DNA from: Massilibacillus sp.
GTDB taxonomy: Bacteria; Bacillota; Negativicutes; JARBTT01
Length of the DNA stretch: 59,148 nt
Direction of reading: 5' to 3'
NCBI GenBank assembly: GCA_029240055.1
Contig: JARBTT010000002.1
Span: 1-59,148, forward strand
The notes under the pieces are model-generated. The model saw only the letters and a program-made list of their open reading frames with translations. It made no database searches and was not told where the DNA came from. The position numbers were made by a program, and so were the translations under genes. Below, one piece after another: positions 170-39,919 of this stretch (position 1 is its first letter; every line of letters starts with the position of its first letter).

Positions 170-174
170 TTTTA

Positions 175-561
175 CTATAGTTTAGCTAGTTTTTCCATTA
201 ACTTTTCAACTAAATAATCGTCTGCACCATTTAGCAACGCAATATACATTGTATTCCTAAATTTTACATATGAGCTAGATGTGGTTGTAATTTCTGCTTT
301 TAATTTTGCAAGTAATTCATCTTTCTTTTCTTCGACCGCATCAATGACTACAGGTGCTACCGTTGCAGCTACCTCGCTAGTTACTGTTGTTGCTGTAGTT
401 GTGTTTTCTTCTGACATTTTAACATCATCCTTCTTTTTATTATTTTTAATTTTATTTATGATATCTTCTAAAAGTTCCGGCAAATACTTGTCAGCTAGTT
501 TTAGAAAATATGGCAATAACCATTTTAAAACTGGTGTTATATAAGGTGTTATGTATTGCAT
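175..561 (-). CDS. hypothetical protein (last gene of late operon)
   Basis: 128-aa ORF with a hydrophobic/amphipathic N-terminus, a T/A/V-rich linker and a helical C-terminus. Same strand and spacing as the lysis genes. Confidence 0.6.
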   Translation of the reverse strand: MQYITPYITPVLKWLLPYFLKLADKYLPELLEDIINKIKNNKKKDDVKMSEENTTTATTVTSEVAATVAPVVIDAVEEKKDELLAKLKAEITTTSSSYVKFRNTMYIALLNGADDYLVEKLMEKLAKL

Positions 562-1209: not shown

Positions 1210-1743
1210 TCATTTGATATAATCGGTAATTCCTCTTGCAATAGCTCTGGCAAAATCATCTTGACGGTCAGCGAGCAATTGTTCATCAGAATCATTTGTA
1301 ATAAATGCAGTTTCGACTAAAACGCCTGTCATATTCGTATTAGTCAAAACATACAAACCATTTTTGTGTGGTACTGCTGATTTAATACCTCTATCAGTTG
1401 TGCCTAATGAATTGATGATTTGTTCTTGAATACAATACGCTAGGCTTTCCCCTTCTTCTGATTGGTCATAGTACCAAGTTTCTGTGCCGTTAGCTTGTGT
1501 TGATTCTGCACCATTACAATGTAGGGAAATAAATAAATCTGCTCCACAGCCATTAGCCACGTCACAGATTTCATTTAAATCATTTAGTTGTACGATCTTT
1601 GTTTCATAGTCAACATTTTCAAGATATCCAGCAAGCAAATTGCCGATATTTAGAACAACGTCAGCTTCTTGTAAGCCTGTATTTTGGTTAACTGCGCCAG
1701 AATCTTCACCGGGGCAATGACCGGGATTAATTACAATTAACAT
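1210..1743 (-). CDS. N-acetylmuramoyl-L-alanine amidase (Amidase_3 type endolysin)
   Basis: INPGH, SLHCN, GTETWY and LVETAFITN motifs typical of CwlD/Amidase_3 zinc amidases. 177 aa, with no wall-binding domain. Confidence 0.9.
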   Translation of the reverse strand: MLIVINPGHCPGEDSGAVNQNTGLQEADVVLNIGNLLAGYLENVDYETKIVQLNDLNEICDVANGCGADLFISLHCNGAESTQANGTETWYYDQSEEGESLAYCIQEQIINSLGTTDRGIKSAVPHKNGLYVLTNTNMTGVLVETAFITNDSDEQLLADRQDDFARAIARGITDYIK

Positions 1744-1782
1744 CTATATTTTCCTCCATTTTCTTAAATTAAAATACCGCGA

Positions 1783-2184
1783 CTACCTTCGCATATTGGT
1801 AATCACGGTATCAAAACGATTCTGCATATTATTTTGTAGATTAAGCAATTCATTTTTAGTTACTGAGTTCTCAATTAAATCAGATACATTAGATTGAATT
1901 GCATTTACATCGTTTCGTAATGCTTTTTGACCTTCATCATGCACAGCATAATTAGTTACCATATTTTGCAGGACATTACCTAACATATCTACTGATTTAC
2001 TCATTGATTCTGTAGCTTTTGTATTGTTCGCAATAAGTACGTTTTGTGTTGATAATATAGGTGGTAATTTTTTTGCAAAATAAATAGCCAATCCAATAAA
2101 TGAAAGGCAAATTAAAATTGTGATTGGCGTACTTATCGCTTTATCAATTAGTGGTAATGCATTTTCATATGTCACATAATTCAT
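1783..2184 (-). CDS. membrane-anchored coiled-coil protein, putative holin/lysis accessory
   Basis: One N-terminal TM segment (ITILICLSFIGLAIYFA) followed by an N/Q-rich coiled coil. Lies immediately upstream of the endolysin. Confidence 0.55.
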   Translation of the reverse strand: MNYVTYENALPLIDKAISTPITILICLSFIGLAIYFAKKLPPILSTQNVLIANNTKATESMSKSVDMLGNVLQNMVTNYAVHDEGQKALRNDVNAIQSNVSDLIENSVTKNELLNLQNNMQNRFDTVITNMRR

Positions 2185-2432
2185 TCCTTCCTTTTAAAGC
2201 CAAGTGCGTTGTGATTATGTTTTAATTCATCTTCAAAAACTCTCTTTTGCGACTCACTCATTGTTATCCCTGCTTTAGTTAACGCTGGATAAATTTCAGT
2301 TGATATGTCACCAAAAAGCACATTGATAACTATAGGTACATAACTTTTAACCACTGGTTTGATAATCCGATACGATAATGCTATTGAGATAATTAGTATT
2401 GCAAGATATACGATTGTTCTTGATACGTACAT
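2181..2432 (-). CDS. small membrane protein, putative holin
   Basis: 83 aa with an N-terminal TM (IVYLAILIISIALSY), a second hydrophobic stretch and a charged C-terminus. Overlaps the next gene by 4 nt. Confidence 0.5.
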   Translation of the reverse strand: MYVSRTIVYLAILIISIALSYRIIKPVVKSYVPIVINVLFGDISTEIYPALTKAGITMSESQKRVFEDELKHNHNALGFKRKE

Positions 2433-2433
2433 A

Positions 2434-2565
2434 TTAACCCTCCGTTTTTGTAGTATCTTCCGAAACTATACTTTTACCGCAAGTAGGGTTTGTGCATATT
2501 CCGTTTGCATCTTTTGGATATCCACAAAAATCACATCTTGGAGTATATGAAACAGCATCACTCAT
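2434..2565 (-). CDS. zinc-ribbon mini-protein (43 aa)
   Basis: Hand translation MSDAVSYTPRCDFCGYPKDANGICTNPTCGKSIVSEDTTKTEG. ATGA overlap with the upstream stop. Below the track cutoff. Confidence 0.4.
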   Translation of the reverse strand: MSDAVSYTPRCDFCGYPKDANGICTNPTCGKSIVSEDTTKTEG

Positions 2566-5021: not shown

Positions 5022-8000
5022 TTAATACCCCCTAATTATTGCTTTCTGTAATTTACCTGTGATCATTGCACCGTTTGCATCTAATATACACATATCGAAA
5101 TACTCATTGGTTTGATTGACAATATAACAAGTTGCTTGAACACCAGATATATCTTGCGTATATGGTGCAATTGAGCGTACTTCTGTAAATTTCTTAACGT
5201 AAGTAAATCGAGTAATTTCAGCAGCAATAGTTTTATTTTCAATAACTTCTTCAATATCTGGAACATCAATACCCACACTTGCGCCTGTAATAAATACCTG
5301 TCCCATTCCATCTGAGCTAGTTGGCAACAATTTAATTTGCACATACCTTCCAGAGAATTGTTTATTGCTTATAGATATCCAATCACTCCAAGCAACCCCA
5401 TCAAGAGACACTCTATATTCAATATCAATATAAGCATTTCCAGTGTATGTATAATCTACATTTACGCCAACAAAAGTGTCTTTAGCATAAGATGGTGTCA
5501 TATATTCATATGGTTTACCGCTAAATATATCAGCGAATAGTTCATAATCTCCAAGCGTATCAGTGCTTAAAAGTTTCAATGTTCCATCATGCGATATATA
5601 GTAGCAACTATCATCAATAATATTTTCACCTAAATCAATAGTTGGGAATGTTATTGATGCACCAGCAACAAAATAAAAAGGATGTTCAAATATATCAGCA
5701 AATATGTCATAATCGCCAAGAATATCCGTTGTATTTAAACAGTACGTATTATCTAAATTCAAGTACATCCCCTGTGTTACCCATGTACTCATATCTTCGG
5801 TGCGTTCGTAGATAATGTTTTTTACTGGCAAATTAACTACATTTACAATTGCTCTACCTGCCGTTTTTGAATAGTTATTTTTACCATCTATTGCTTTCAG
5901 CCAAAAAGTAAGCGTCCCTTCGGATGGAGCTGCAAACGTATATGAATTTGATGTGAACCTTCCAACGAGCGAAGAAGTTCCCCAAGTGTTACCGATTCTT
6001 AATTCGTAAGTATAGTATTGGTTACTGATACTAGAATCAAGTTTAGCAATAAGATTTTCGCCATCTTGTGTTACCGTAAAACTAGGCGCATCTATTGCGT
6101 CAGTACCTTCTATCGTATATGTGTAAGGTTCAACGTCTGAAAGTAACTGTTCAGCCGAATTAAACACATTGAAACTAGTTAGTTTTATATAAAGCTTTTT
6201 CCCTATGTCCTCTGTTTTGTAAGTATATCTAAATATAGCATCGTCAAGTCGAACAAACCTTGAACCTGCCAAATGTGATTCGATATCTGAACCGTAAACG
6301 CCACGTGTCAACTTACTTAAATCATATTGATTAGTTGCGGTTAATGTAGCATTTTGATAACCTATAATTTCACCATCAACCCAACAAAGAGTATTATTAC
6401 TTTCGGCATCAGCTTCTGACGATGTAAGTAATTCGCCACGAGAAATGGATAAATTCACACTCAAAGTATTGACTATATCATTAGAATATCCTTGATTAAT
6501 CGCTTTGGTTAATACCCCATGACGTGACGGTGCTGTTACTCGCCCAATTCTTTTATAAGTTTTGTCGTCATAAGATGCCCAAACGCTACATCCACCCCAA
6601 ATAAAACCTCCAGCGGTAGCCAAGCACAAAGTCATTGTATTGGCAATTTGTGCAGGTGGCTCGAAAATAATAGGGTCGTTTGCATTGCCCGGGTCGGCGT
6701 TATAATCAACATTTGCTCTTGTTGCGTCTTGGGTAGCATAAGTTGGAGCTGAATGAGTACCGCTAGGATTATCTTCGAAAGTAATTTCTAAAGTGTAATC
6801 TTCTTTTGATTCTTTAATGGAAACAACTCTTACTGCGGTTTCGTCAAGTCCTGCAAGTTTACAAGCTGTTGTTACTGCATCCATAGGGTCAAGCAATACA
6901 AACTCTTGCCCTAATTTTTGCACATATTGATTACGAACATAAAGCTGTTTTTGTAAAATGTTTTGTGCTACTGCTTGTGCTACTGCCTTAGAAGTAATTT
7001 CTTTATGTGAGCTCGTGCTAGCTTGTCTTATACCATATTGGTCAATATGTCCTTGATCGGTTGCATAGACAGTATCGGTATTATAATCGTTGTTTCTATC
7101 CGAAAATTCAAGTGGTTGAATATTGTAAGCATCTGCTTGTCGGCTACGAGTAATAACAATAGTATTGTCTTCTTGTCCTATAATATTATCGTCTATTATG
7201 TCATATATTGGATTTAAGCTGTCGTAATAAGGTATGAGTTTAAGCTTTCCTTGCGACCATACAGCATCGGAATTTGTAGCTTCTAAAGCTGCAGTGATAA
7301 TATCACTAGCTTGTGTTTGTGAAGTGATGGAAGGTGACAATAGGAGCGAATTATTTTTACAATAATTACTATAGTCTGACCAATCAGGAATATAGTCAGT
7401 AGGAAACTGACAACCAAATACTTGGTTAGCTACTAATTCGTAGATTACATCTCGTGGATTTGCATCTCTTGGAGTATATTGAACAGAGTTAGAAACGGCT
7501 TTATAACTGATTTTTATAGCTAATGGATCTTCTCTATCGTACCCATCGTCCCTATCGTCAAAATTAAACTTATAAATATAAACATTTTCAATATTATTAC
7601 CATAACTATCTTTTTTTTGTGTAATAGTATAATATCGGCTGTCAAGTTCTATATAACTATTAGGATATGAATACTCATATACGGCGATATTAGCAACAAA
7701 GTTGCTTACTTCAATTTCTTGTTGGTATGCATATTGATAAGTCAATTCATTGGATGGTGTACCATATTGATCTTGGCATAATCCATATACTTCAAAATTA
7801 TAATTAGCTAAACTAGCACTATCGCCTAGGTCTACTACGCCAGCAACGTAAGATATTCCAGAATACCCTAGTGCTTTTTCTGGATGTTTGGATACCATGT
7901 ACCCCCAAGGAGATTGACCTACTGAACCATTGAAAAATGTCAGCCCTTCTGCTCCCAAAGTTGTTACACTTTTGCTTTTCCATATCTTACCTACGTTAGT

Positions 8001-8736: not shown

Positions 8737-9621
8737 CTATAATAAAGTTTCTGGAACTGGGATAAATGGCATTCCTCTAAATCTAGCTAAGTTGTTAAAT
8801 CCTTGGCATGCTGTAATTGTTTTACTACATCCGGGATAAATCCTAAAAGTATCACCAACACTGACAGCTAGATTAAAAGGATGAAACAAAGAAGCAACAC
8901 CGGAAGTAAAGACTTTGACTGTCCTTGTAACGCCTATATTTGCACCAGTAATACCAACGATTGTTCCTTGTGTATAATAACCGCTACCAGTAGAAGTAGA
9001 AACAATACTAGTTTTCGAACTGCCTGCCTGTGCGGTAAATGTTACGCCAAGATTTTCCTTATTGATGCCACACATAAAATCACCAAATGTGTTTAAACAA
9101 GACGGTGACATTAAGTTTCTAGGCAATTGCGTATTTAATAATTCAAGTGCCGATTTTACCGTTAATGTTGCGGAAGTAAAACGTAATTCATCGGTATCCA
9201 TCCGTCCAACAAAACGCCCTTTTAAAACATAGTTGCTTGAAATATTAGGCATGATATAACTCCAAGGGTCAGGAGAATACAAACGGTCAATGCTAACTGT
9301 ACAATCATCGAAAGCACCACTTTGTAATGCTTGATACCAAGTTACGCCAAGCCCTGTAATTTTATCGAAAGGATTAAAATATATATCAATTGTTGTATCG
9401 GAAACCTTTATTCCTCGTTCTTCAGTTATATCGCCATGATCAATGGGCCAATGTTCGTAAATATTACCGCCAATACTTAATGTTGTATCATGCCCTGTAT
9501 ATAATAACGTTTGTCCGCTACTTAATTTAAACATATACAATTCTGCAATATACCAAGTACGCCGCTTACCCAACATATATTCTGTAAATAAATTTTGAAG
9601 AGCTGTAGATGCTGTTTTCAT
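8737..9621 (-). CDS. tail hub protein (DUF2163 plus BR0599-type C-terminus, GTA gp13-like)
   Basis: C-terminal CSKTITACQGFNNLARFRGMPFIP motif. Start set at the ATG in an ATGA overlap with the upstream stop (the track start at 9660 is less likely). Confidence 0.65.
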   Translation of the reverse strand: MKTASTALQNLFTEYMLGKRRTWYIAELYMFKLSSGQTLLYTGHDTTLSIGGNIYEHWPIDHGDITEERGIKVSDTTIDIYFNPFDKITGLGVTWYQALQSGAFDDCTVSIDRLYSPDPWSYIMPNISSNYVLKGRFVGRMDTDELRFTSATLTVKSALELLNTQLPRNLMSPSCLNTFGDFMCGINKENLGVTFTAQAGSSKTSIVSTSTGSGYYTQGTIVGITGANIGVTRTVKVFTSGVASLFHPFNLAVSVGDTFRIYPGCSKTITACQGFNNLARFRGMPFIPVPETLL

Positions 9622-10217
9622 AGCTTCACCGTTTCTAATTCCAACTCTTCCAGTGACCAACCGCCATAAAATATTTGTTGAAATTCGCTAGTATCGTTTT
9701 TGAAATGGCAACGATAATACCATTGACCAGACCATGCTAATTCTGCGCCAGAAGTGACAATGCTAGGGAAAGTTATTAATGCAGTAGTATCCCAAGTAAA
9801 ATCAGTTGTTGCTACTCCGGCAATCGTAATAATTGGTTTAGCCGTAATGCCAAAAACAGGTTCGGTGAAACCTCCATAAGTGCGAGCTAAGCGAAAACTA
9901 GTACTTTGCCCATCCCCCACGCCAAAAACTTGATTAGTTGCCGTATTATCTTCGAATAACGGATCGGCAAATAAGAAGTCTTGTCCTGAGCCGCCAACGC
10001 GATTATAAAATCCCATCAACGAATGTATATCATCGTTTTGGTCGTTACTATCCTCTAAATATTCAAATTGTAATTTCAAACTATAAAATGGATATGTATA
10101 AAGTTGTAAAAACTTTGGAATACCTGTCATTCCTTTTTGCTGAATAGTGCTCCAATTATTAGTTTTTATTATTGGATATGTCAGGCCGCGGAATATTGGT
10201 AAAACTAAATCACTCAT
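9618..10217 (-). CDS. distal tail protein (DUF2460 / GTA gp12-like)
   Basis: 199 aa, first gene after the tape measure. Sequence style FRGLTYPI...FADPLFEDN. Confidence 0.5.
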   Translation of the reverse strand: MSDLVLPIFRGLTYPIIKTNNWSTIQQKGMTGIPKFLQLYTYPFYSLKLQFEYLEDSNDQNDDIHSLMGFYNRVGGSGQDFLFADPLFEDNTATNQVFGVGDGQSTSFRLARTYGGFTEPVFGITAKPIITIAGVATTDFTWDTTALITFPSIVTSGAELAWSGQWYYRCHFKNDTSEFQQIFYGGWSLEELELETVKL

Positions 10218-10246
10218 AATTAACCCCCTTAAAAGGGAAAACCGCC

Positions 10247-13200
10247 CTATTTATTAGGACGGTTAAAATTTCTATATTCTTTATTTATTACTGTTGCCAT
10301 ATCGCGACTTGAATTATTTAAGGCATGCTTCATGCCTCGACCATCAATAGCAGAAGCATTTACATTAAATGTTGTATTTCCTGTACGCGTACGACTATTG
10401 CCACTACTAGAATTACCACTACCAAGACTACGAATATTATCCGCTAGGTCTGGTGTTAAAATCATTTCATTTTTGTGAACCATAGCCAATGTATCTTCTG
10501 GTAATTGTTGCGCCCCTATATCAAAACTAGGAACGGTAATTTGCGATACAGGGGTAGGAGTTTGATAGTAGCTATTCGGACTTCTTCCAAGGCTTACAGA
10601 GCTTGTACTTTCAGAAGTAGAAGAACCGCCACCGCCAAACAATGCTGATATCGCCCACATTATCGCCATCATTTCAAGCATTTGCATCATTGCTAATTGA
10701 GTCCCTTTGACTGCATTTGCATTTGCTTCTTGGTCACTAGCTGTCACTGCGGCATTTTTAGTAGCATTTGCTGTAATTTCTGTTGTGTTTTTAACTTGGT
10801 CTGTTGCAATTTCAGTAGCATTTTGAGTAGTTTTTAAAGATGCTCGTTGCGTTACGCCTTGTTGAACAACGGAAGTAAGCTGGTTCTGTACTGCTTTTTC
10901 TTGTGCTACTTGATTATTTTTTGCGCCAGAACCTTGCTTGTTGTCTTTTGTATCTTTTTTACCATAAACAAGCTGAGTTAAGTTTTTAGTCATCTTTTGC
11001 GTAAAATCAGTAGAAAATTGACTAGCTACACCTTTCCACATGCTACTAAAAATATTTTTCATCGCTTGCGCCCAAGACATTGTTTTATTCAATATCCCAT
11101 TTAGAGATTGTTCAAGTCCAGACTTATAAGATGTCAATGCCGCAATTTCATAACGATTAACATACTCAAAAGTTTCTTGACTTAAGTCCCGCTTTTTCTT
11201 TTCGTATTCAGCTTGTATCTGTTCGCCTTTAGCCAAGAATTCTTGTGTTTTGATAAAATCTTTTGATAATTCTTCTATTTGCTTTTCAGTATCAGCACGA
11301 TCTAAATCTGTTTTTGCATTAATGTAAGCACGATAGGCGGCAATCATATCATCAGCATTGCCCTCTTTAGGGTTAACCATCCCACCTATAGCTTTTTCAT
11401 TTTCAGCACTCTTTTGACTGTAAGTAGACTCATTTTGCTGAACTTTGTAAGCAATTGCCTGTGATTTACTAATAAGTCCTACTTTTTCGTTATACTCAAT
11501 CTGCTTGTCAATCAATGCTTGAATATCAGTAATGTATTGCTTGTTTATTTCGGCTCGTTTTTTAGCGATTGACATTTCGTAATCATTACGCTCTTTGATC
11601 TTTTTGTAAAGATTTTGTTCAGCTTGTTCGCGTTCTGTAGAGTTAAGAAGTGCTTTATCGCGAATAGTAGTAAGCATTTCAATTTCTTTATCAAAAGCAT
11701 CACGTTTAGTAATTTTTTCTTCTGCAATAGCTGTTTCAAGTTGCGCTTTTTGTAAATCTAATTGTTCCTTTTGTTTTTTGGTCATCAACTCATATTGACC
11801 TTTTTGGAAGTCTAACGTTTCTTGGTGATTTTTATTGTCTGTTTTAGGAACATCGCCAAGCATGGAACTATATAGATATAATTGATCGTTTGAAGTAAAC
11901 TTCTTGCCATCTACTGCTTCTGATTGGTATTTAGCCGCTGCAACAGCTTCTTCATATGCTTTTTTAGCTTGTTGGTATGCGGTTTCTCCTGTACCTTCTT
12001 TGCGACCTTTTTTGCCTTTAGGTTCGTATGGTGTAGTTTCGTTACCGCCGATTCTATTTTCGCTTCCAGAACCATATCCAGATAATTCCGTTTTATTAGC
12101 TTGCATCTTTAAATCAGTCATTTTTTGCGTTAAAGCATCTATTTCCTCTGTTACGGAAGAAGGTTTCCATTTAGCTAATCTATCTAACTCCGCTTGTAAT
12201 GCTTCGTTATCGCTAGCTTTTCCGACCAACGCTTGATAGTTATCTTTACCGACAATATTTGATGCAGCATTATTAAAATCAATCTCGCCTTGTACAAAAC
12301 CAGCGTATGTATTCATAGCTAATTGTTGTGCTTGCGCTAATAAACCCCATGCGGATGTTTCTGATTTTAAAGCATCTATTCTATCTTGTGTTAATTGAAT
12401 TTGGTTGTTAGTATATTGTACTTGTTGATTTATAAGATCTTTTATTTCCCCTTGAATTGAAGAACTTTTTTTACTATGAGCTTCTTGTTCTAATTTAATA
12501 GATTCTTGGATATTGTCAGATGTTGTAATCCTTTCAAGCCCATCTTGTCCTACAATTTTTGCGAGCTCATCTTCCGTTGCGCCTAAATCTTTTTTGATTT
12601 GAGTCGCTTTAGATTCATCGTTACCGACATCTTTTAAATTTTGTTGAAGCTTAATATATGATTGTCCAAGAGTACCAATGAATTCAACTTGCTTTTGGTT
12701 CATTTCAATTTCTTGTTTTTTAGCGGCAATTAAATCGTTATTCTTTTGTATAGTATTTTCTGCTGCAGTATCAGACGAACCTAATGCTGTAGCGTATACA
12801 GCACCACCAGCAGCGGCGGCAATTAAAGCACCTATTATTAAGTTTAATCCGCCTGTTGCAACGGTTGCAGCTATACCTAATCTACCAGTAGCTGTAGTGG
12901 CTGCATTAGTAGCTACTGTTTCTACGCCTAAAGCTGCGCTTTTTACACCACTAGCAACTGTTCCTTCGGTTTCGACTACTGCGGTGGTTTTTAATGCTGT
13001 GCTTAATCCAATCAATCCAGCATTTAAAAAAGATAATGTTTTAGATAAAACTAAGAAACCTGTGCCAGCAATCGCGGTAACTCCTGCAATCTGATAAGCA
13101 CTAGCAGGTATTTTTTGTAACCCTTTCAAGAAGTCGTTTATAACATCAAGCATTCCTTTAATACCTGTAGCTAAACCAGAATTGCCTGTATTGACTAAAA

Positions 13201-13366
13201 GACCTTCCATGCTAGCCTTAACTTGTTCTATTTTACGGTTGATTGTATCAAGTTGTGCTGCGACTTGTGTCTCAGCCATACCGCCAGAATTAATAGATAG
13301 ATTGTATGATTTAATAAAGTCAGCATATGAACCGAACATGGCAGCGGCACGACCCCATTGGAACTT
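10247..13366 (-). CDS. tail tape measure protein, exon 2 (C-terminal 1039 aa)
   Basis: Begins KFQWGRAAAMFG..NSGGMAETQ, which continues a TP901-type TMP core. Followed by long coiled-coil and Gly/Ala TM-like segments. Joined in frame to exon 1 by splicing. Confidence 0.8.
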   Translation of the reverse strand, partial: KFQWGRAAAMFGSYADFIKSYNLSINSGGMAETQVAAQLDTINRKIEQVKASMEGLLVNTGNSGLATGIKGMLDVINDFLKGLQKIPASAYQIAGVTAIAGTGFLVLSKTLSFLNAGLIGLSTALKTTAVVETEGTVASGVKSAALGVETVATNAATTATGRLGIAATVATGGLNLIIGALIAAAAGGAVYATALGSSDTAAENTIQKNNDLIAAKKQEIEMNQKQVEFIGTLGQSYIKLQQNLKDVGNDESKATQIKKDLGATEDELAKIVGQDGLERITTSDNIQESIKLEQEAHSKKSSSIQGEIKDLINQQVQYTNNQIQLTQDRIDALKSETSAWGLLAQAQQLAMNTYAGFVQGEIDFNNAASNIVGKDNYQALVGKASDNEALQAELDRLAKWKPSSVTEEIDALTQKMTDLKMQANKTELSGYGSGSENRIGGNETTPYEPKGKKGRKEGTGETAYQQAKKAYEEAVAAAKYQSEAVDGKKFTSNDQLYLYSSMLGDVPKTDNKNHQETLDFQKGQYELMTKKQKEQLDLQKAQLETAIAEEKITKRDAFDKEIEMLTTIRDKALLNSTEREQAEQNLYKKIKERNDYEMSIAKKRAEINKQYITDIQALIDKQIEYNEKVGLISKSQAIAYKVQQNESTYSQKSAENEKAIGGMVNPKEGNADDMIAAYRAYINAKTDLDRADTEKQIEELSKDFIKTQEFLAKGEQIQAEYEKKKRDLSQETFEYVNRYEIAALTSYKSGLEQSLNGILNKTMSWAQAMKNIFSSMWKGVASQFSTDFTQKMTKNLTQLVYGKKDTKDNKQGSGAKNNQVAQEKAVQNQLTSVVQQGVTQRASLKTTQNATEIATDQVKNTTEITANATKNAAVTASDQEANANAVKGTQLAMMQMLEMMAIMWAISALFGGGGSSTSESTSSVSLGRSPNSYYQTPTPVSQITVPSFDIGAQQLPEDTLAMVHKNEMILTPDLADNIRSLGSGNSSSGNSRTRTGNTTFNVNASAIDGRGMKHALNNSSRDMATVINKEYRNFNRPNK

Positions 13367-14582
13367 CATATTGTTACTTTTTCTATGTTTTTGGGCATAG
13401 AAAAGGCACGGTCATTTCTGCCGTGCTCTATCGTTTATTATTAGGTTATGCGATAGTTCGGACTGTATCTTCCTCTACGTGAGAGGGGGTTATGTCAGTC
13501 TCTCGGGGTTTATTATGCAAGTTCTTTAATTGTAGTCATTAAAGAATTTAAATCATTCTTTATATCTTTCCCCCATAATTCGTAAAACTTCATTCGGTAT
13601 TTTTTGTAGTATCCAAACTTTCTTTTATCTCGGTTCATGTGGTCAATCTGTTGGCTATTTAAATCTTCTAGTTTATATATTTCTGGATTACCGTGCCAAT
13701 AATCTCCTTGTACCTCAAGGAATATATTTGCATCAACAATATAAAAGTCTGGATAATATTTACCAAAATTATATTGAAAAATATATTTAACATTATGAAG
13801 GTCTAGCCATTCTTTAACCATTAATTCAATATCAGTATTGCTTGAACCGCCAATAATTTGGCATTTTACACTACAGTATTTACCTCTATGATGTGTTTTG
13901 TGATGGGGATAAATTTTCATTTCTTTACCACAATATTGGCAATGCCCTATTTCTGTTTCTACTGTTGCATCGTGATTCCTACAATCCAAACTGCAATATT
14001 CAGTATCCTTATCTTTCCGGTTATAAAATTTATTACCGCAATATTTACAGAACTTAATATCTTTTGGATTATAACGACTGCAATCCTTTGAACAATACTG
14101 CGCTAAAGAATTATTAGCCATAAAAACTTTCTCACATATAATGCAAGTCTTTTTATATGGTCTGCCATTTCTTCGGCATTCTAATCCACAAAACTTTTTA
14201 TCTGGATTAGAAGAAGCTATTTCAAATTCTTTACCGCAAACTAAACATTTTTTATCTCCAATAATTAAACGTTTTTTAGGTTTGCAATCAATAGAACAGT
14301 ATACTTGTCTATTGTACTTTCTTTCAAAGACAACTCCACAAGTAGGACAAATCTTTTGTGCCATATTTATCATCCTCTCCAATGATACTCTCAATAATAA
14401 TATAGGCAGGAGGTGAGAGCACCTCTTTTCGACCCGTCGGTCTAGCCTATATCAATATTATATCATATTTAAGGTTGATTTTGCATAATAATTTCCCACG
14501 GTCTTGACCTCCTCAGGCTTTTAACCGTTATAAAACCCTGTTCTTGTAGTACATCGCTGTACTAGGCGGCAAGTTTAGGTCT
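13367..14582 (-). mobile_element. group I intron (1216 nt) with homing endonuclease ORF
   Basis: Pairings that fix the junctions: P1 is exon GGCGGU (14588-14583, U.G at the junction) with intron GCCGCC (14570-14565). P10 is intron AACUU (14575-14571) with exon-2 AAGUU (13366-13362). The intron ends in G (13367). P2 UAGUACA-GCGA-UGUACUA lies at 14564-14547. Several 3' hairpins are present. Confidence 0.85.
13513..14364 (-). CDS. intron-encoded homing endonuclease: 5 zinc-ribbon repeats plus Vsr/DUF559-like PD-(D/E)XK domain
   Basis: Five tandem CxxC(G/E)..F..(Y/F)C(S/G)xxC modules, then YPDFYIVDANIFLEVQGDYWHGN (Vsr-like). Start taken at MAQKICPTCG with a GGAGAGG SD. Confidence 0.7.
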   Translation of the reverse strand: MAQKICPTCGVVFERKYNRQVYCSIDCKPKKRLIIGDKKCLVCGKEFEIASSNPDKKFCGLECRRNGRPYKKTCIICEKVFMANNSLAQYCSKDCSRYNPKDIKFCKYCGNKFYNRKDKDTEYCSLDCRNHDATVETEIGHCQYCGKEMKIYPHHKTHHRGKYCSVKCQIIGGSSNTDIELMVKEWLDLHNVKYIFQYNFGKYYPDFYIVDANIFLEVQGDYWHGNPEIYKLEDLNSQQIDHMNRDKRKFGYYKKYRMKFYELWGKDIKNDLNSLMTTIKELA

Positions 14583-16631
14583 ACCGCCAGCTATATGTTC
14601 TAAATCTTGTTGCATATCTTGGCTTGTCTCATGTACGGTTAGCATTAAATCAGTGATAACGCTCGAAACATCCCTAAAATGAGCAGTACCGCTTTTATCA
14701 AAGTCATATACAGCTATCCCAAGGTTTTGTAAATCTTGAATTGATTTATCAGAATGAATGCTAGAAAAAATAGATTTTAAAGCATTACCAACAATAGAAC
14801 CACTTTGCCCTGTAGTCTTAATCATTGTACTTGCTAAAGCTGTAGTAGTATCAAAAGATACACCGACAACATGAGCAGCAGCACCACTACGCATTAATGC
14901 TTCGGCTAAATCGGTTGCGCTTGATTGTGCATTATGTGCAACGTTGGTAAATGAATCAACGGTATGAGTAGCGAAACTAACTGCATCAGATTGCTTGCCG
15001 TATGAATTGATAATTGATTCTACAGCTCTGTTTGCTAGTGTTACATCCATCATATCAGCGATCGCCAATTTTGCAGATAATCCAGTAAGAGACATTACAT
15101 CTCCGATTTCTTTGTATCCTCTCGACCATAATTTTCCAGCTTCAATAATCTTATCTACTTCCATACCATATTGCTGTGCTATGCCAATAAATTGCCTAGA
15201 AACATCATTTACAGCAGATTGATTATTATGTAGTTGGGGTAAAGTTTGTATCATACCAGCCATTTGCTGTTCAATATCGGCTATAACTCTTACTGATTCC
15301 ATTGGAATAGCAATAGCAGCACCAACAAGTCCAGCGGTTGCCATCCACGATACATGGCTTTTCATTTTTTCTAGAATATTAGTAAATGATTGTGCGCTAT
15401 TACTAGCTTTTTTAATTGACTTATCAATGTTTTCAAAACCAGCAACATATTCACCATAATTAGAAAATCCAGAAAGCGGGCTTGCCTTAGTAGGTGTTGC
15501 CCCTTTTGCTCCCATTTGAGCAGTAACCGTATCCATATCGGACTTCATTTTTGTGAATGATTGTGCTGAAAGTTTTGTATTAGTATCAACATAACTAGCT
15601 ACACGGCGATAAAGATTATCATATGATGTATTAAGCCGCTGAATTTCAGCTTGTTCCTGTTGAAATTGTTTGGTTTTAGTTGCAACATAACTTTCATATT
15701 GTTTAGATTGAGACAGTTCAGTAACACGTTCACGGTTTGTCATTAACGACTGTAGTTTTTGCTCGTCAGTAAGATATTTCGCATAGCTTTTTTGTTGCAT
15801 ATTGTCAATAGCCATGCGGATTTTTTGCTCTTGCTGTAAAGCTTTCTCACGTTGAACCGCATTTGCTTCATACGCTTTTGTGTTGGCTAATTCTGTCGAA
15901 CGTTCTCGTTCTGTCATAGAATTTTGTAATTTTTGTTCTGCGGAAATATAGTCGTTATATGATTTAAGTTGTTGTTGATCTATAGCACGGCGTAACTTTT
16001 GTTCTTCCTGTAATGCTCTTTCACGATCTGGTGAAACATCACTAACAGTGGTTGGCGCATTAGATACTTTCGGTATTGTTGTCGATTCTTTAAACCGTTG
16101 TTGTTCTGCATTTAGTTCTTTAATTCTATCGGTCAATACCTTAAATGATGCGCTACCTTCATCTACTCCACGTGCTAAACCAGAATAAATTCCTTTTTCC
16201 GAACCTACAGAAAGAGTTCCTAGCTCCTTTTTAAAAGAAACAAGAGAATTTAATGCATCGTTAAAATTACCTTTAGCTTCTGTAAATCCAGTGCCACCCT
16301 GCCAAGCTTTATCTGCTTCTTTTGCAGCTAACGTTACTTGTGCTTGTAATGACTTATACTTTTCTTTTGCTTCGTCAGCAGATTTGCCTGTATTGCTCGT
16401 AGCATTACTTACAGCAGCCAATTGGTTTGATTGGTCAACCATTGATTTCATACTAGCAACAATACCGCTATAGCCTTTTGTAGACGTTTCGGTCATAGTA
16501 TTCATAGTTGCGGCTATTTTGTCAGCAGATTGTTGGACTGAATTCGTAATACTATTTATTGATGAAATTAAACCCGCAAAATCAGCCGAGACGACTACAC
16601 GATATTCGCCAAGGTTTGTATTATCAGCCAT
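14583..16631 (-). CDS. tail tape measure protein, exon 1 (N-terminal 683 aa)
   Basis: Coiled-coil repeats followed by a TP901-type core (..LQNLGIAVYDF..). The reading frame ends ..HIAGG at the 5' splice site. The track tail RPKLAA-stop is intron sequence. Confidence 0.8.
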
Positions 16632-38914: not shown

Positions 38915-39919
38915 ATGACGGATGAACGGACAATAAAAAAAGAAAAAACTTGTATTGATTGTAGCGAAACTTTCATCGGCGGAAGAAGCGCTACGCGATG
39001 CGAAGTGTGCAGAAAAAAAGAAAAATACAAAAAAACCCAAGAAATCGTTCAAAGGAGGAAAAACGGTCTGCCCCCTAAACAACTTAGGTACAGTGTAAAA
39101 ATTGGGCAAATTTCTGGATACCAAAAAGCTATTAAAATAATTGACGATAGCCATGTACTAAGTAGATGCGTTTGTGGAAAAGAAGAAGTTATTTATAACC
39201 ATGTATTTTTTAGGCGTACCTCATGCAGCTGTATGTCAAGGGTGGGGAAAGCTAATAAAGGCAAAGAATGTGCAGGGGTATATAAGAACATTAAAGGAGA
39301 TGGCTACAGAGCAGAAATAAGTGTTAATAAAACTAATATTTATTTAGGGTTTTACAACAAGCAAGAGGATGCTATAGCAATCAGGCAAAGAATAACGGAA
39401 TTATATATCGAAGCTCAAAAAAGAGTTGTAGAAATGATGCCAGTAGGTAATTATAGAGGTGCAAAACATAGAAATATAACAGGACAAACTTTTGGCAAAT
39501 CTATCGCTATAGCAATGAATGGCACTAAAAAAGGCAGTAATTTGGAATGGATTTGTATTTGTGGCTGTGGCAATGTTTTTATAACAACTGCAATAAACTT
39601 ATTGCGTGGAGACACAACAAGTTGTGGATGCGAACATAAAAAACAATGTATAAAAAATGTAACAAGCGATCTTATTGAAGATACAAAAATAAGTAGTCTA
39701 AATGCCAATCTTAGGATAAATAATACAAGCGGACATAAAGGCGTATCTTGGAGTAATAAATCTAATAAATGGTATGCGTATATAACGTTTCAAGGTAAAA
39801 TGAAAAGTTTAGGTCTTCATGATTTTGTTGATGATGCAATAAAAGCGCGCGAAAAAGCCGAAGAAAAGTACTTTAAACCAATAATAGAAAAATACGCGGA
39901 GGAAACAAGCAATGATTAA
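38915..39919 (+). CDS. DNA-binding protein with two AP2 domains and Cys clusters
   Basis: GVYKNIKGDGYRAEISVNKTNIYLGFY..EDA and GHKGVSWSNKSNKWYAYITFQGKMKSLGLH..DDA. Each is preceded by a C.CG...SC.C cluster. Confidence 0.7.
   Translation: MTDERTIKKEKTCIDCSETFIGGRSATRCEVCRKKEKYKKTQEIVQRRKNGLPPKQLRYSVKIGQISGYQKAIKIIDDSHVLSRCVCGKEEVIYNHVFFRRTSCSCMSRVGKANKGKECAGVYKNIKGDGYRAEISVNKTNIYLGFYNKQEDAIAIRQRITELYIEAQKRVVEMMPVGNYRGAKHRNITGQTFGKSIAIAMNGTKKGSNLEWICICGCGNVFITTAINLLRGDTTSCGCEHKKQCIKNVTSDLIEDTKISSLNANLRINNTSGHKGVSWSNKSNKWYAYITFQGKMKSLGLHDFVDDAIKAREKAEEKYFKPIIEKYAEETSND

Follow-up and report, generated by a model that had tools for sequence, protein, structure and literature searches.

A proposed group I intron interrupting a phage tape measure gene

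We analyzed a 59,148-nucleotide stretch of Massilibacillus sp. DNA (contig JARBTT010000002.1, called the window below) and propose that a mobile group I intron at 14582..13367 interrupts its tape measure protein (TMP) gene, a reading to which we give a probability of about 0.9. Coordinates are window positions unless a relative is named, and the TMP gene, the intron and the endonuclease open reading frame (ORF) are all on the minus strand. Two TMP ORFs of 689 aa (16631..14562) and 1040 aa (13369..10247) are encoded on either side of a 1216-nt spacer with an ORF of 283/293 aa between them. The 689-aa ORF carries the PhageMin_Tail/TP901 domain, with a PF10145 match at residues 486-675. It extends six codons into the intron (RPKLAA) and ends at the UAG at 14564..14562. 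The apparent start of the second ORF, an ATG at 13369..13367, is made of the final three intron bases, and direct reading found no ribosome binding site (RBS) upstream of it.

Joining 14583 to 13366 gives a single open frame of 1722 aa, reading ...EHIAGG|KFQWGRAAAMFG... across the junction. TIGR01760 (tape_meas_TP901) aligns to the product without a break (residues 14-359 of the 378-aa spliced segment, with the junction at 253/254). A prior sequence-only reading had placed a group I intron at 13367-14582 in the TMP gene and predicted that splicing at 14583|13366 would restore a 1722-aa protein. Its coordinates were confirmed and its sequence-level predictions hold. It had also proposed a comparison with intron-less TMP homologues, and one such allele, L003, reads ...LLAISGG|KFQWSK... 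straight across the exact predicted junction, in the surrounding sequence TCTGGCGGTAAATTCCAGTGG. The uninterrupted L003 reading is the predicted ligation product.

Structure and covariation of the intron RNA

Relatives and other loci are labeled L001-L167 for loci or contigs and P0001-P0034 for TMP proteins, and the TMP relatives come from metagenomic phages. To the group I call the sequence-only reading had added a P1 helix whose U.G pair marks the 5' splice site, a following P2 with a GNRA cap, and a terminal G as omega-G; all three can be read directly in the window (Table 1). Across the relatives all seven P2 pairs show compensatory changes, and the terminal G, directly before the restored codon, is present in 14 of the 14 copies compared. 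The tight hairpins it noticed in the 3' 145 nt are P8, P9, P9.1 and P9.2. That reading was silent on four points: the P6-loop position of the ORF, the P3/P7 core, int-alpA, and the earlier publication on such introns.

One copy of the P4-P5-P4' pattern is present in the window, and the shuffled sequences contain none. With its ORF trimmed, the intron folds at -83 kcal/mol versus -51 +/- 4 for shuffles (z = -7.4), and the minimum-energy fold recovers P1, P2 and P4-P9.2. We aligned 12 TMP inserts with MAFFT, trimming ORF-bearing loops back to the stem. On these 12 inserts RNAalifold, unaided, returned P1, P2, P4, P5, P6, P6a, P7 (bulged), P9, P9.1 and P9.2; it cannot see P3 because this helix is pseudoknotted with P7. 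Standard pairing is found in 96.4% of cells versus 31-42% when partners are slid by one to three columns, and compensatory changes on both sides are seen for 32 of the 54 pairs. Covariation scores 0.558; the slid controls reach at most 0.115, and none of 500 shuffles attained the observed score. The window copy keeps every column that is invariant among the 12 relatives, with all helices intact.

The MAFFT alignment misaligns the P3'/P8 region, where some members have an extra hairpin. P3 and P8 were excluded from the formal pair count and checked separately by anchored extraction. P3 takes the forms GGGUU/AACCC, CGUGG/CCACG, GACCU/AGGUC, UCGGUU/AACCGA, GUGAC/GUCAC and GUAGC/GCUAC, and its cross-sequence control falls only a little below it (4.6 vs 3.5 bp). 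Every member forms P8 as a hairpin that covaries. The guide also covaries with the exon: GGCGGU/GCCGCC at the window's site, GGGGU/GCCCC in L005, CGGGU/GCCCG in L006, L028 and L009, and GGGGGU/GCCCUC in L046. P7.1/P7.2, which mark subgroups IA1/IA2, are absent from the window copy, where 4 nt separate P7 from P3'. In L006, L028 and L009 one extra hairpin lies between P7 and P3'.

The P9.1 loop, CAGAAAUGA, is invariant in all TMP-type introns (the window copy and the 12 aligned relatives) and is not found in the tRNA-borne relatives described below. As the loop is fixed while its stem covaries freely, a tertiary contact is suggested.

Table 1. Positions of the intron, its RNA helices, the ORF it carries and the flanking exons in the window.
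Feature	Position	Strand	Description
TMP exon 1	14583..16631	-	683 codons
Predicted group I intron	13367..14582	-	1216 nt; starts right after the U.G pair and ends with the terminal G at 13367
P1	14565..14588	-	exon GGCGGU (14588..14583) with guide GCCGCC (14570..14565); U.G at the splice site
P10 candidate	14575..14571 and 13366..13362	-	AACUU with exon-2 AAGUU; 5 bp in the window
P2	14547..14564	-	UAGUACA-GCGA-UGUACUA; GNRA loop; first three bases are the in-frame stop ending exon-1 translation
P3, 5' strand	14538..14534	-	GGGUU
P4	14528..14524 and 14502..14498	-	ACGGU/ACCGU
P5	14518..14507	-	GCCU/AGGU
P6	14497..14495 and ~13508..13506	-	GGG/CCC
P6a	14491..14483 and 13518..13510	-	UUAUUAUGC/GCAUAAUAA
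Extended -10-like box	14457..14465	-	TGATATAAT (TATGATATAAT box); in the P6 loop; conserved in L004 and L042; direct reading
int-alpA RNA (RF02996)	14387..14452	-	three-way junction; 52.2 bits vs gathering score 35.8; full-length match (1-71)
Predicted homing-endonuclease ORF	13513..14364	-	283 aa; RBS GGAGAGG at 14380..14374
P7	13500..13496 and 13465..13461	-	GACUG/CAGUC
P3, 3' strand	13491..13487	-	AACCC
P8	13486..13472	-	CCUCU/AGAGG
P9	13456..13428	-
P9.1	13426..13406	-	invariant loop CAGAAAUGA
P9.2	13404..13379	-
Core halves	14483..14538 (5') and 13379..13518 (3')	-
TMP exon 2	10247..13366	-	1039 codons and stop

Insertion sites, cargo and empty alleles among the relatives

A search with the spliced junction region retrieved 34 TMP relatives. 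Intron-type tails end 32 of them, and none of the 34 crosses all sites uninterrupted. Nine end at the window's site (site A) with ...ISGG followed by RPKLAA or RRKLAA. Another 20 end at site B, about 70 codons upstream, with ...GAEVG followed by RPKLAA, RVIAA, RMIAA, RLKLAA or RQKLAA, and three end at site C1 with ...IIEAG followed by K(R)KLAA or QYCPIAA. In L005 (minus strand) two ORF-less inserts are separated by about 600 nt, and a fourth site, KLWG|RTYK, holds one of them. At least four insertion sites are thus found in one TMP domain, all after a GGU glycine codon and before AA or AG. The sequence-only reading had called an intron in a TMP gene uncommon. This was overstated, given these 32 relatives and the TMP introns published in 2008.

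The ORF-less copies of the intron RNA are about 245 nt long, occupy the window's site as well as others, and have a short hairpin where the window has its P6-loop ORF. L001 has such a 245-nt insert at site A, and L003 has one at site B with site A empty. L002 encodes two inserts, an ORF-less one at site B (9494..9729 of that locus) and one with a GIY-YIG ORF at site A (9934..11182). An ORF of the window's type is found at site B in L042 and L004, and GIY-YIG ORFs are in the L044 and L040 inserts. The window TMP is uninterrupted at sites B and C. Every site is found both occupied and empty, and the insert has either no ORF or one of two unrelated kinds, as is classically seen for a mobile group I intron. 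A TMP that is naturally produced as two pieces is irreconcilable with these observations.

As L002 and L005 illustrate, one TMP gene can hold two introns of this family, leaving a 75-codon middle exon that gene callers list as a separate small protein. The site-C1 intron of L040 codes for a GIY-YIG/NUMOD3 ORF (1663..2448, plus strand) and, on the opposite strand, a 51-aa RHH_3 (ribbon-helix-helix) ORF (1420..1575, minus strand).

A stop codon (UAG, UAA or UGA) is conserved at the first bases of P2 in all phase-matched relatives. The last residues of the unspliced exon-1 products (14562..14582 in the window, and P0001-P0034) are ...LAA or ...IAA. They come from the guide GCCGCN, which is the complement of the Gly codons and is translated as Ala-Ala just before the stop at the base of P2. 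We considered the RPKLAA tail as an ssrA-like degron. It is more simply explained by the guide, and other sites give other tails (KQNCPSTWKLVA, RVCPKIW), so the likeness to an ssrA tag is probably a by-product.

In bacterial genomes the same P4-P5-P4' pattern matches 24 loci, most of which are insertions with the same core in the anticodon loops of tRNA genes. These inserts follow ...CCAUGGU and precede AA, by eye in tRNA-Thr(GGU) between positions 36 and 37, which is the same GGU|AA context as at the TMP sites. The genome loci (L016-L038; L035 at ~170..560 is a tRNA-borne example) are mostly from metagenome-assembled genomes of Patescibacteria (the candidate phyla radiation), with others from Bdellovibrionales and Pedobacter.

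Evidence against the proposed intron and alternative explanations

Several observations weigh against the proposed intron. Splicing itself we infer from sequence. The sequence-only reading had proposed a P10 between AACUU and AAGUU; its five pairs form in the window, but the helix is not conserved. The pairing is sound in the window, L007 and L010. An A.C mismatch interrupts it in L001, L002 and L011, the second TMP site (site B) allows only about 2 bp, and elsewhere it is mismatched or nearly absent. We therefore treat P10 as optional. P1 at site B is likewise only 4 bp. The covariation counts come from 12 related sequences with ORF-trimmed P6 loops and few sub-lineages, and partly reflect shared ancestry.

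The Rfam group I model is a further difficulty. A cmscan with the Rfam group I models, suggested as a check in the sequence-only reading, came back empty: RF00028 (Intron_gpI) has no match in the window at the gathering threshold, nor at E <= 10 on 13200..14750. It gives 11.7 bits on the ORF-less L001 copy (the gathering score is 50), 13.9 bits on the tRNA-borne L035, also sub-threshold, and nothing on L007. At gathering scores Rfam called none among 20 loci with the same core, including six tRNA-borne loci. Since the model scores its ORF-less and tRNA-borne relatives at 11.7-13.9 bits or not at all, we do not count the null result against the window copy. Its alignment to the L001 copy is full length, with P1-P9 in the same places and the classical GACU.../AAGAUAYAGUC elements. 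RF00028 appears to lack sensitivity for this subgroup, and for the window copy the match appears to be broken by the 1-kb ORF in P6. The single Rfam group I model misses this intron subgroup entirely, tRNA-borne members included.

The lack of an Rfam match could also be taken to mean a decayed copy that no longer splices, in a TMP pseudogene or on the contig of a defective phage, and prophage TMP genes are known to retain introns that are no longer mobile (PMC2504315). However, the columns invariant in the 12 relatives are all kept and the helices intact, both exons are open over 1722 codons, and the endonuclease ORF is intact with its catalytic residues. The remainder of the siphovirus-like 59-kb genome has complete terminase, portal, capsid and tail genes. 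Decay of the copy is improbable on this evidence. That TMP is truly two polypeptides, the insert being a free-standing selfish endonuclease cassette without removal at the RNA level, would agree with the two ORFs annotated by gene callers in all relatives and with exon 2 happening to begin right after an ATG. That ATG has no RBS, however, and the break falls inside one conserved domain that is continuous once spliced. In the relatives the same domain is broken at four points, each of them unbroken in others, and a 245-nt ORF-less insert with a covarying RNA fold makes no sense as a protein cassette. We consider two natural polypeptides very unlikely.

Elements of another kind are scarcely credible here. 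A group II intron would have a GUGYG start, an AY end and a six-domain layout, none of which is present. The insert is not in frame and carries stops, so it is not an intein, and 1.2 kb is far beyond any known translational bypass. No non-ORF sequence is left over once the group I helices are assigned.

A putative EDxHD homing endonuclease in the P6 loop

The P6a stem (UUAUUAUGC/GCAUAAUAA) encloses the 283-aa ORF in the P6 loop, and the stop codons of the ORF lie inside the 3' strand of P6a. The ORF codes for five zinc-ribbon repeats (CxxC...CSxxC) followed by a C-terminal Vsr-like EDxHD nuclease. Pfam gave only weak zinc-ribbon and Vsr matches, and PHROGs label the protein an HNH endonuclease via its zinc-ribbon repeats. 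A phmmer search against PDB sequences likewise returned weak zinc-ribbon matches only, without a sequence-level match to 3R3P, and the nuclease family was therefore assigned by fold comparison. The AF2 model has a pLDDT of 88.5, and its top PDB matches in Foldseek are Vsr (1cw0) and the catalytic domain of I-Bth0305I (3r3p), both with probability 1.0. The match to 3r3p has a TM score of 0.75 (normalised to 3r3p), an E-value of ~1e-3 and 24% identity.

E180, D206, H224 (in G-D-Y-W-H224) and D246 are invariant in 18 sequences. The E-D and D-H spacings of 26 and 18 compare with 26 and 17 in I-Bth0305I. Homologues of the endonuclease carry DUF559/PF04480, PF18741 or Vsr/PF03852, and the three that we looked up are also in TMP introns. 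Judged by the modeled fold, the ORF is an EDxHD (Vsr-like) homing endonuclease of the I-Bth0305I type with a different DNA-binding module.

An int-alpA RNA and promoter-like box upstream of the endonuclease

Upstream of the endonuclease, the P6 loop contains in order the TATGATATAAT box, an int-alpA RNA, the RBS and the ORF. The TGATATAAT box escaped a simple -35/-10 scan; we read it directly, and it may be an internal promoter for an endonuclease transcript. The box and int-alpA are similarly arranged in L004 (5451..5533 of that locus, 55.7 bits) and L042 (~7420..7500). To our knowledge int-alpA is an orphan motif, reported so far solely as a presumed sRNA close to integrase and alpA genes. 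In the window, UGAGAG (14393..14388), shortly before the RBS, is the complement of its hairpin-2 loop CUCUCA (14419..14414).

The int-alpA core pattern, TAGNNNGACGNNNCGAAAAG, is very common in phage contigs, with at least 120 viral loci (L049-L167). Among the matches listed, counting the viral loci and the window, 109 of 121 have the expected hairpin complementarity, and the copies are nearly always 30-70 nt upstream of an ORF. Those ORFs, again among the matches listed, vary widely and include a 955-aa primase-like protein (16 cases) as well as antirepressor-like, HNH, GIY-YIG and zinc-ribbon proteins. Complementarity of at least 6 nt between the loop and the pre-RBS segment is found in 70 of the 96 instances among the matches listed, versus 32% in cross-sequence controls. 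This covarying loop-to-downstream pairing suggests a pseudoknotted cis-acting 5' leader. Some of the copies among the matches listed directly follow a tRNA 3' end.

We rejected the idea that int-alpA is an endonuclease-specific leader, as the ORFs downstream in 99 viral loci among the matches listed are diverse and the endonuclease homologues in L046-L048 lack int-alpA. It is conceivable, though we put it forward only tentatively and think it somewhat doubtful, that int-alpA is a cis-acting leader, a three-way junction with a pseudoknot reaching the RBS region, that controls the next gene and in the intron would form a self-contained cassette of promoter, leader and endonuclease. If so, this cassette in the P6 loop would time endonuclease production independently of TMP transcription and splicing. 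An int-alpA inside an intron also offers a defined, testable context for work on this orphan RNA.

Proposed splicing and homing pathway

The pathway we propose for the intron takes its steps from the established chemistry of the group I family, a two-step transesterification initiated by guanosine. The pre-mRNA would fold into the P1-P9.2 ribozyme, and a free guanosine held in P7 would attack after the U of the P1 helix GGCGGU/GCCGCC. The terminal G (13367) would then occupy the guanosine site, and the released 3'-OH of exon 1 would attack after G13367. In this way ...GCUGGCGGU would be ligated to AAGUUCCAAUGG, restoring the 1722-aa TMP.

On unspliced RNA, the UAG at the base of P2 would halt translation a few codons into the intron. 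As the in-frame stop is made of the first P2 bases, translation would end at the edge of the ribozyme, presumably keeping ribosomes off its core. The P6 loop would act as a separate expression cassette comprising the -10-like box, the int-alpA leader, the RBS and the ORF. The endonuclease presumably cuts intron-less TMP alleles during co-infection, and repair would copy the intron in.

Comparison with known systems

The phage T4 td intron loops the I-TevI ORF out of P6, with its own expression signals, and translation of its upstream exon stops soon after the 5' splice site. Like td, the window element is a phage group I intron with an endonuclease ORF in P6, its own putative expression signals and an early stop past the 5' splice site. 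Unlike the window intron, td interrupts a thymidylate synthase gene rather than a structural one, codes for a GIY-YIG enzyme and has no int-alpA. GIY-YIG ORFs as in td are carried by the relatives L002, L040 and L044 and not by the window.

Group I introns named TMP-IVS1, IVS2 and IVS3 have been described at three TMP sites in prophages of the Bacillus cereus group (Tourasse & Kolsto 2008, PMC2504315). They are related copies with P1 varied to fit their sites, with and without endonuclease genes (PMC2504315). The self-splicing-type intron proposed here is a further example of this element already described in phage TMP genes in 2008. Both groups are found in TMP genes of siphovirus-type phages or prophages, with several sites per gene, a site-fitted P1 and guide, an endonuclease that is present or absent, and spread between unrelated phages (PMC2504315). 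The window intron differs in having no DNA similarity to phage records and in belonging to a family with at least four sites, all after GGU. In contrast to the IA1/IA2 assignment reported for the B. cereus introns, the window copy lacks P7.1/P7.2, has a core matching that of tRNA-inserted introns, and carries an int-alpA leader.

I-Bth0305I is an EDxHD homing endonuclease encoded in the recA group I intron of Bacillus phage 0305phi8-36 (PMC3239194, PDB 3R3P), and the EDxHD family was defined on this phage recA intron enzyme (PMC3239194). The window protein is similar in its Vsr-like catalytic domain, its conserved E/D/H/D with matching spacing, and its place in a phage group I intron. It differs in the N-terminus, which has five CxxC...CSxxC zinc ribbons instead of NUMOD2/HTH, in 13 extra residues separating the H from the final D, and in its target gene, TMP.

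The tRNA anticodon-loop introns have a P3-P7 core nearly identical to that of the window intron, AUAACGGUYAAAA...CAAGACCGUG, then CCGA(A/G)(C/A)GACUGACA and AGAUACAGUC. They too are inserted after GGU and before AA and have a GCC guide. Unlike the window intron, they are short and ORF-less, lack P9.1 and P9.2, and are in tRNA genes of Patescibacteria and other bacteria.

The intron bears on annotation, as the two "TMP" ORFs and the many truncated metagenome proteins ending in ...RPKLAA would be halves of one gene. Estimates of tail length based on TMP size would need the spliced 1722-aa product. With these relatives the known cases gain a clade of uncultured phages, where a single intron family is found in at least four GGU|AR sites within the same conserved TMP domain. 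The swapping of cargo within the family (none, GIY-YIG or zinc-ribbon EDxHD) provides a compact natural data set on retargeting by a few guide-base changes.

Other features of the phage genomes

A blastn search with the intron region, and with the ORF-less L001 copy, gave zero matches in 50,697 phage records. The terminase of the window is at most 46% identical to those of isolates, and the hosts are uncultured. A 334-aa ORF at 38915..39919 (plus strand) lies opposite nearly all genes and has a weak C-terminal AP2 match (23 bits, sub-threshold). An opposite-strand ORF with an AP2 domain is typical of free-standing homing endonucleases of the HNH-AP2 type. Phage contigs with TMP introns also code for other structured RNAs, including a ROOL RNA beside tRNA genes in L010 (1..430, minus strand, 186 bits) and 6A RNA motifs (54 bits) in L006 (6129..6180) and L008 (1623..1674).

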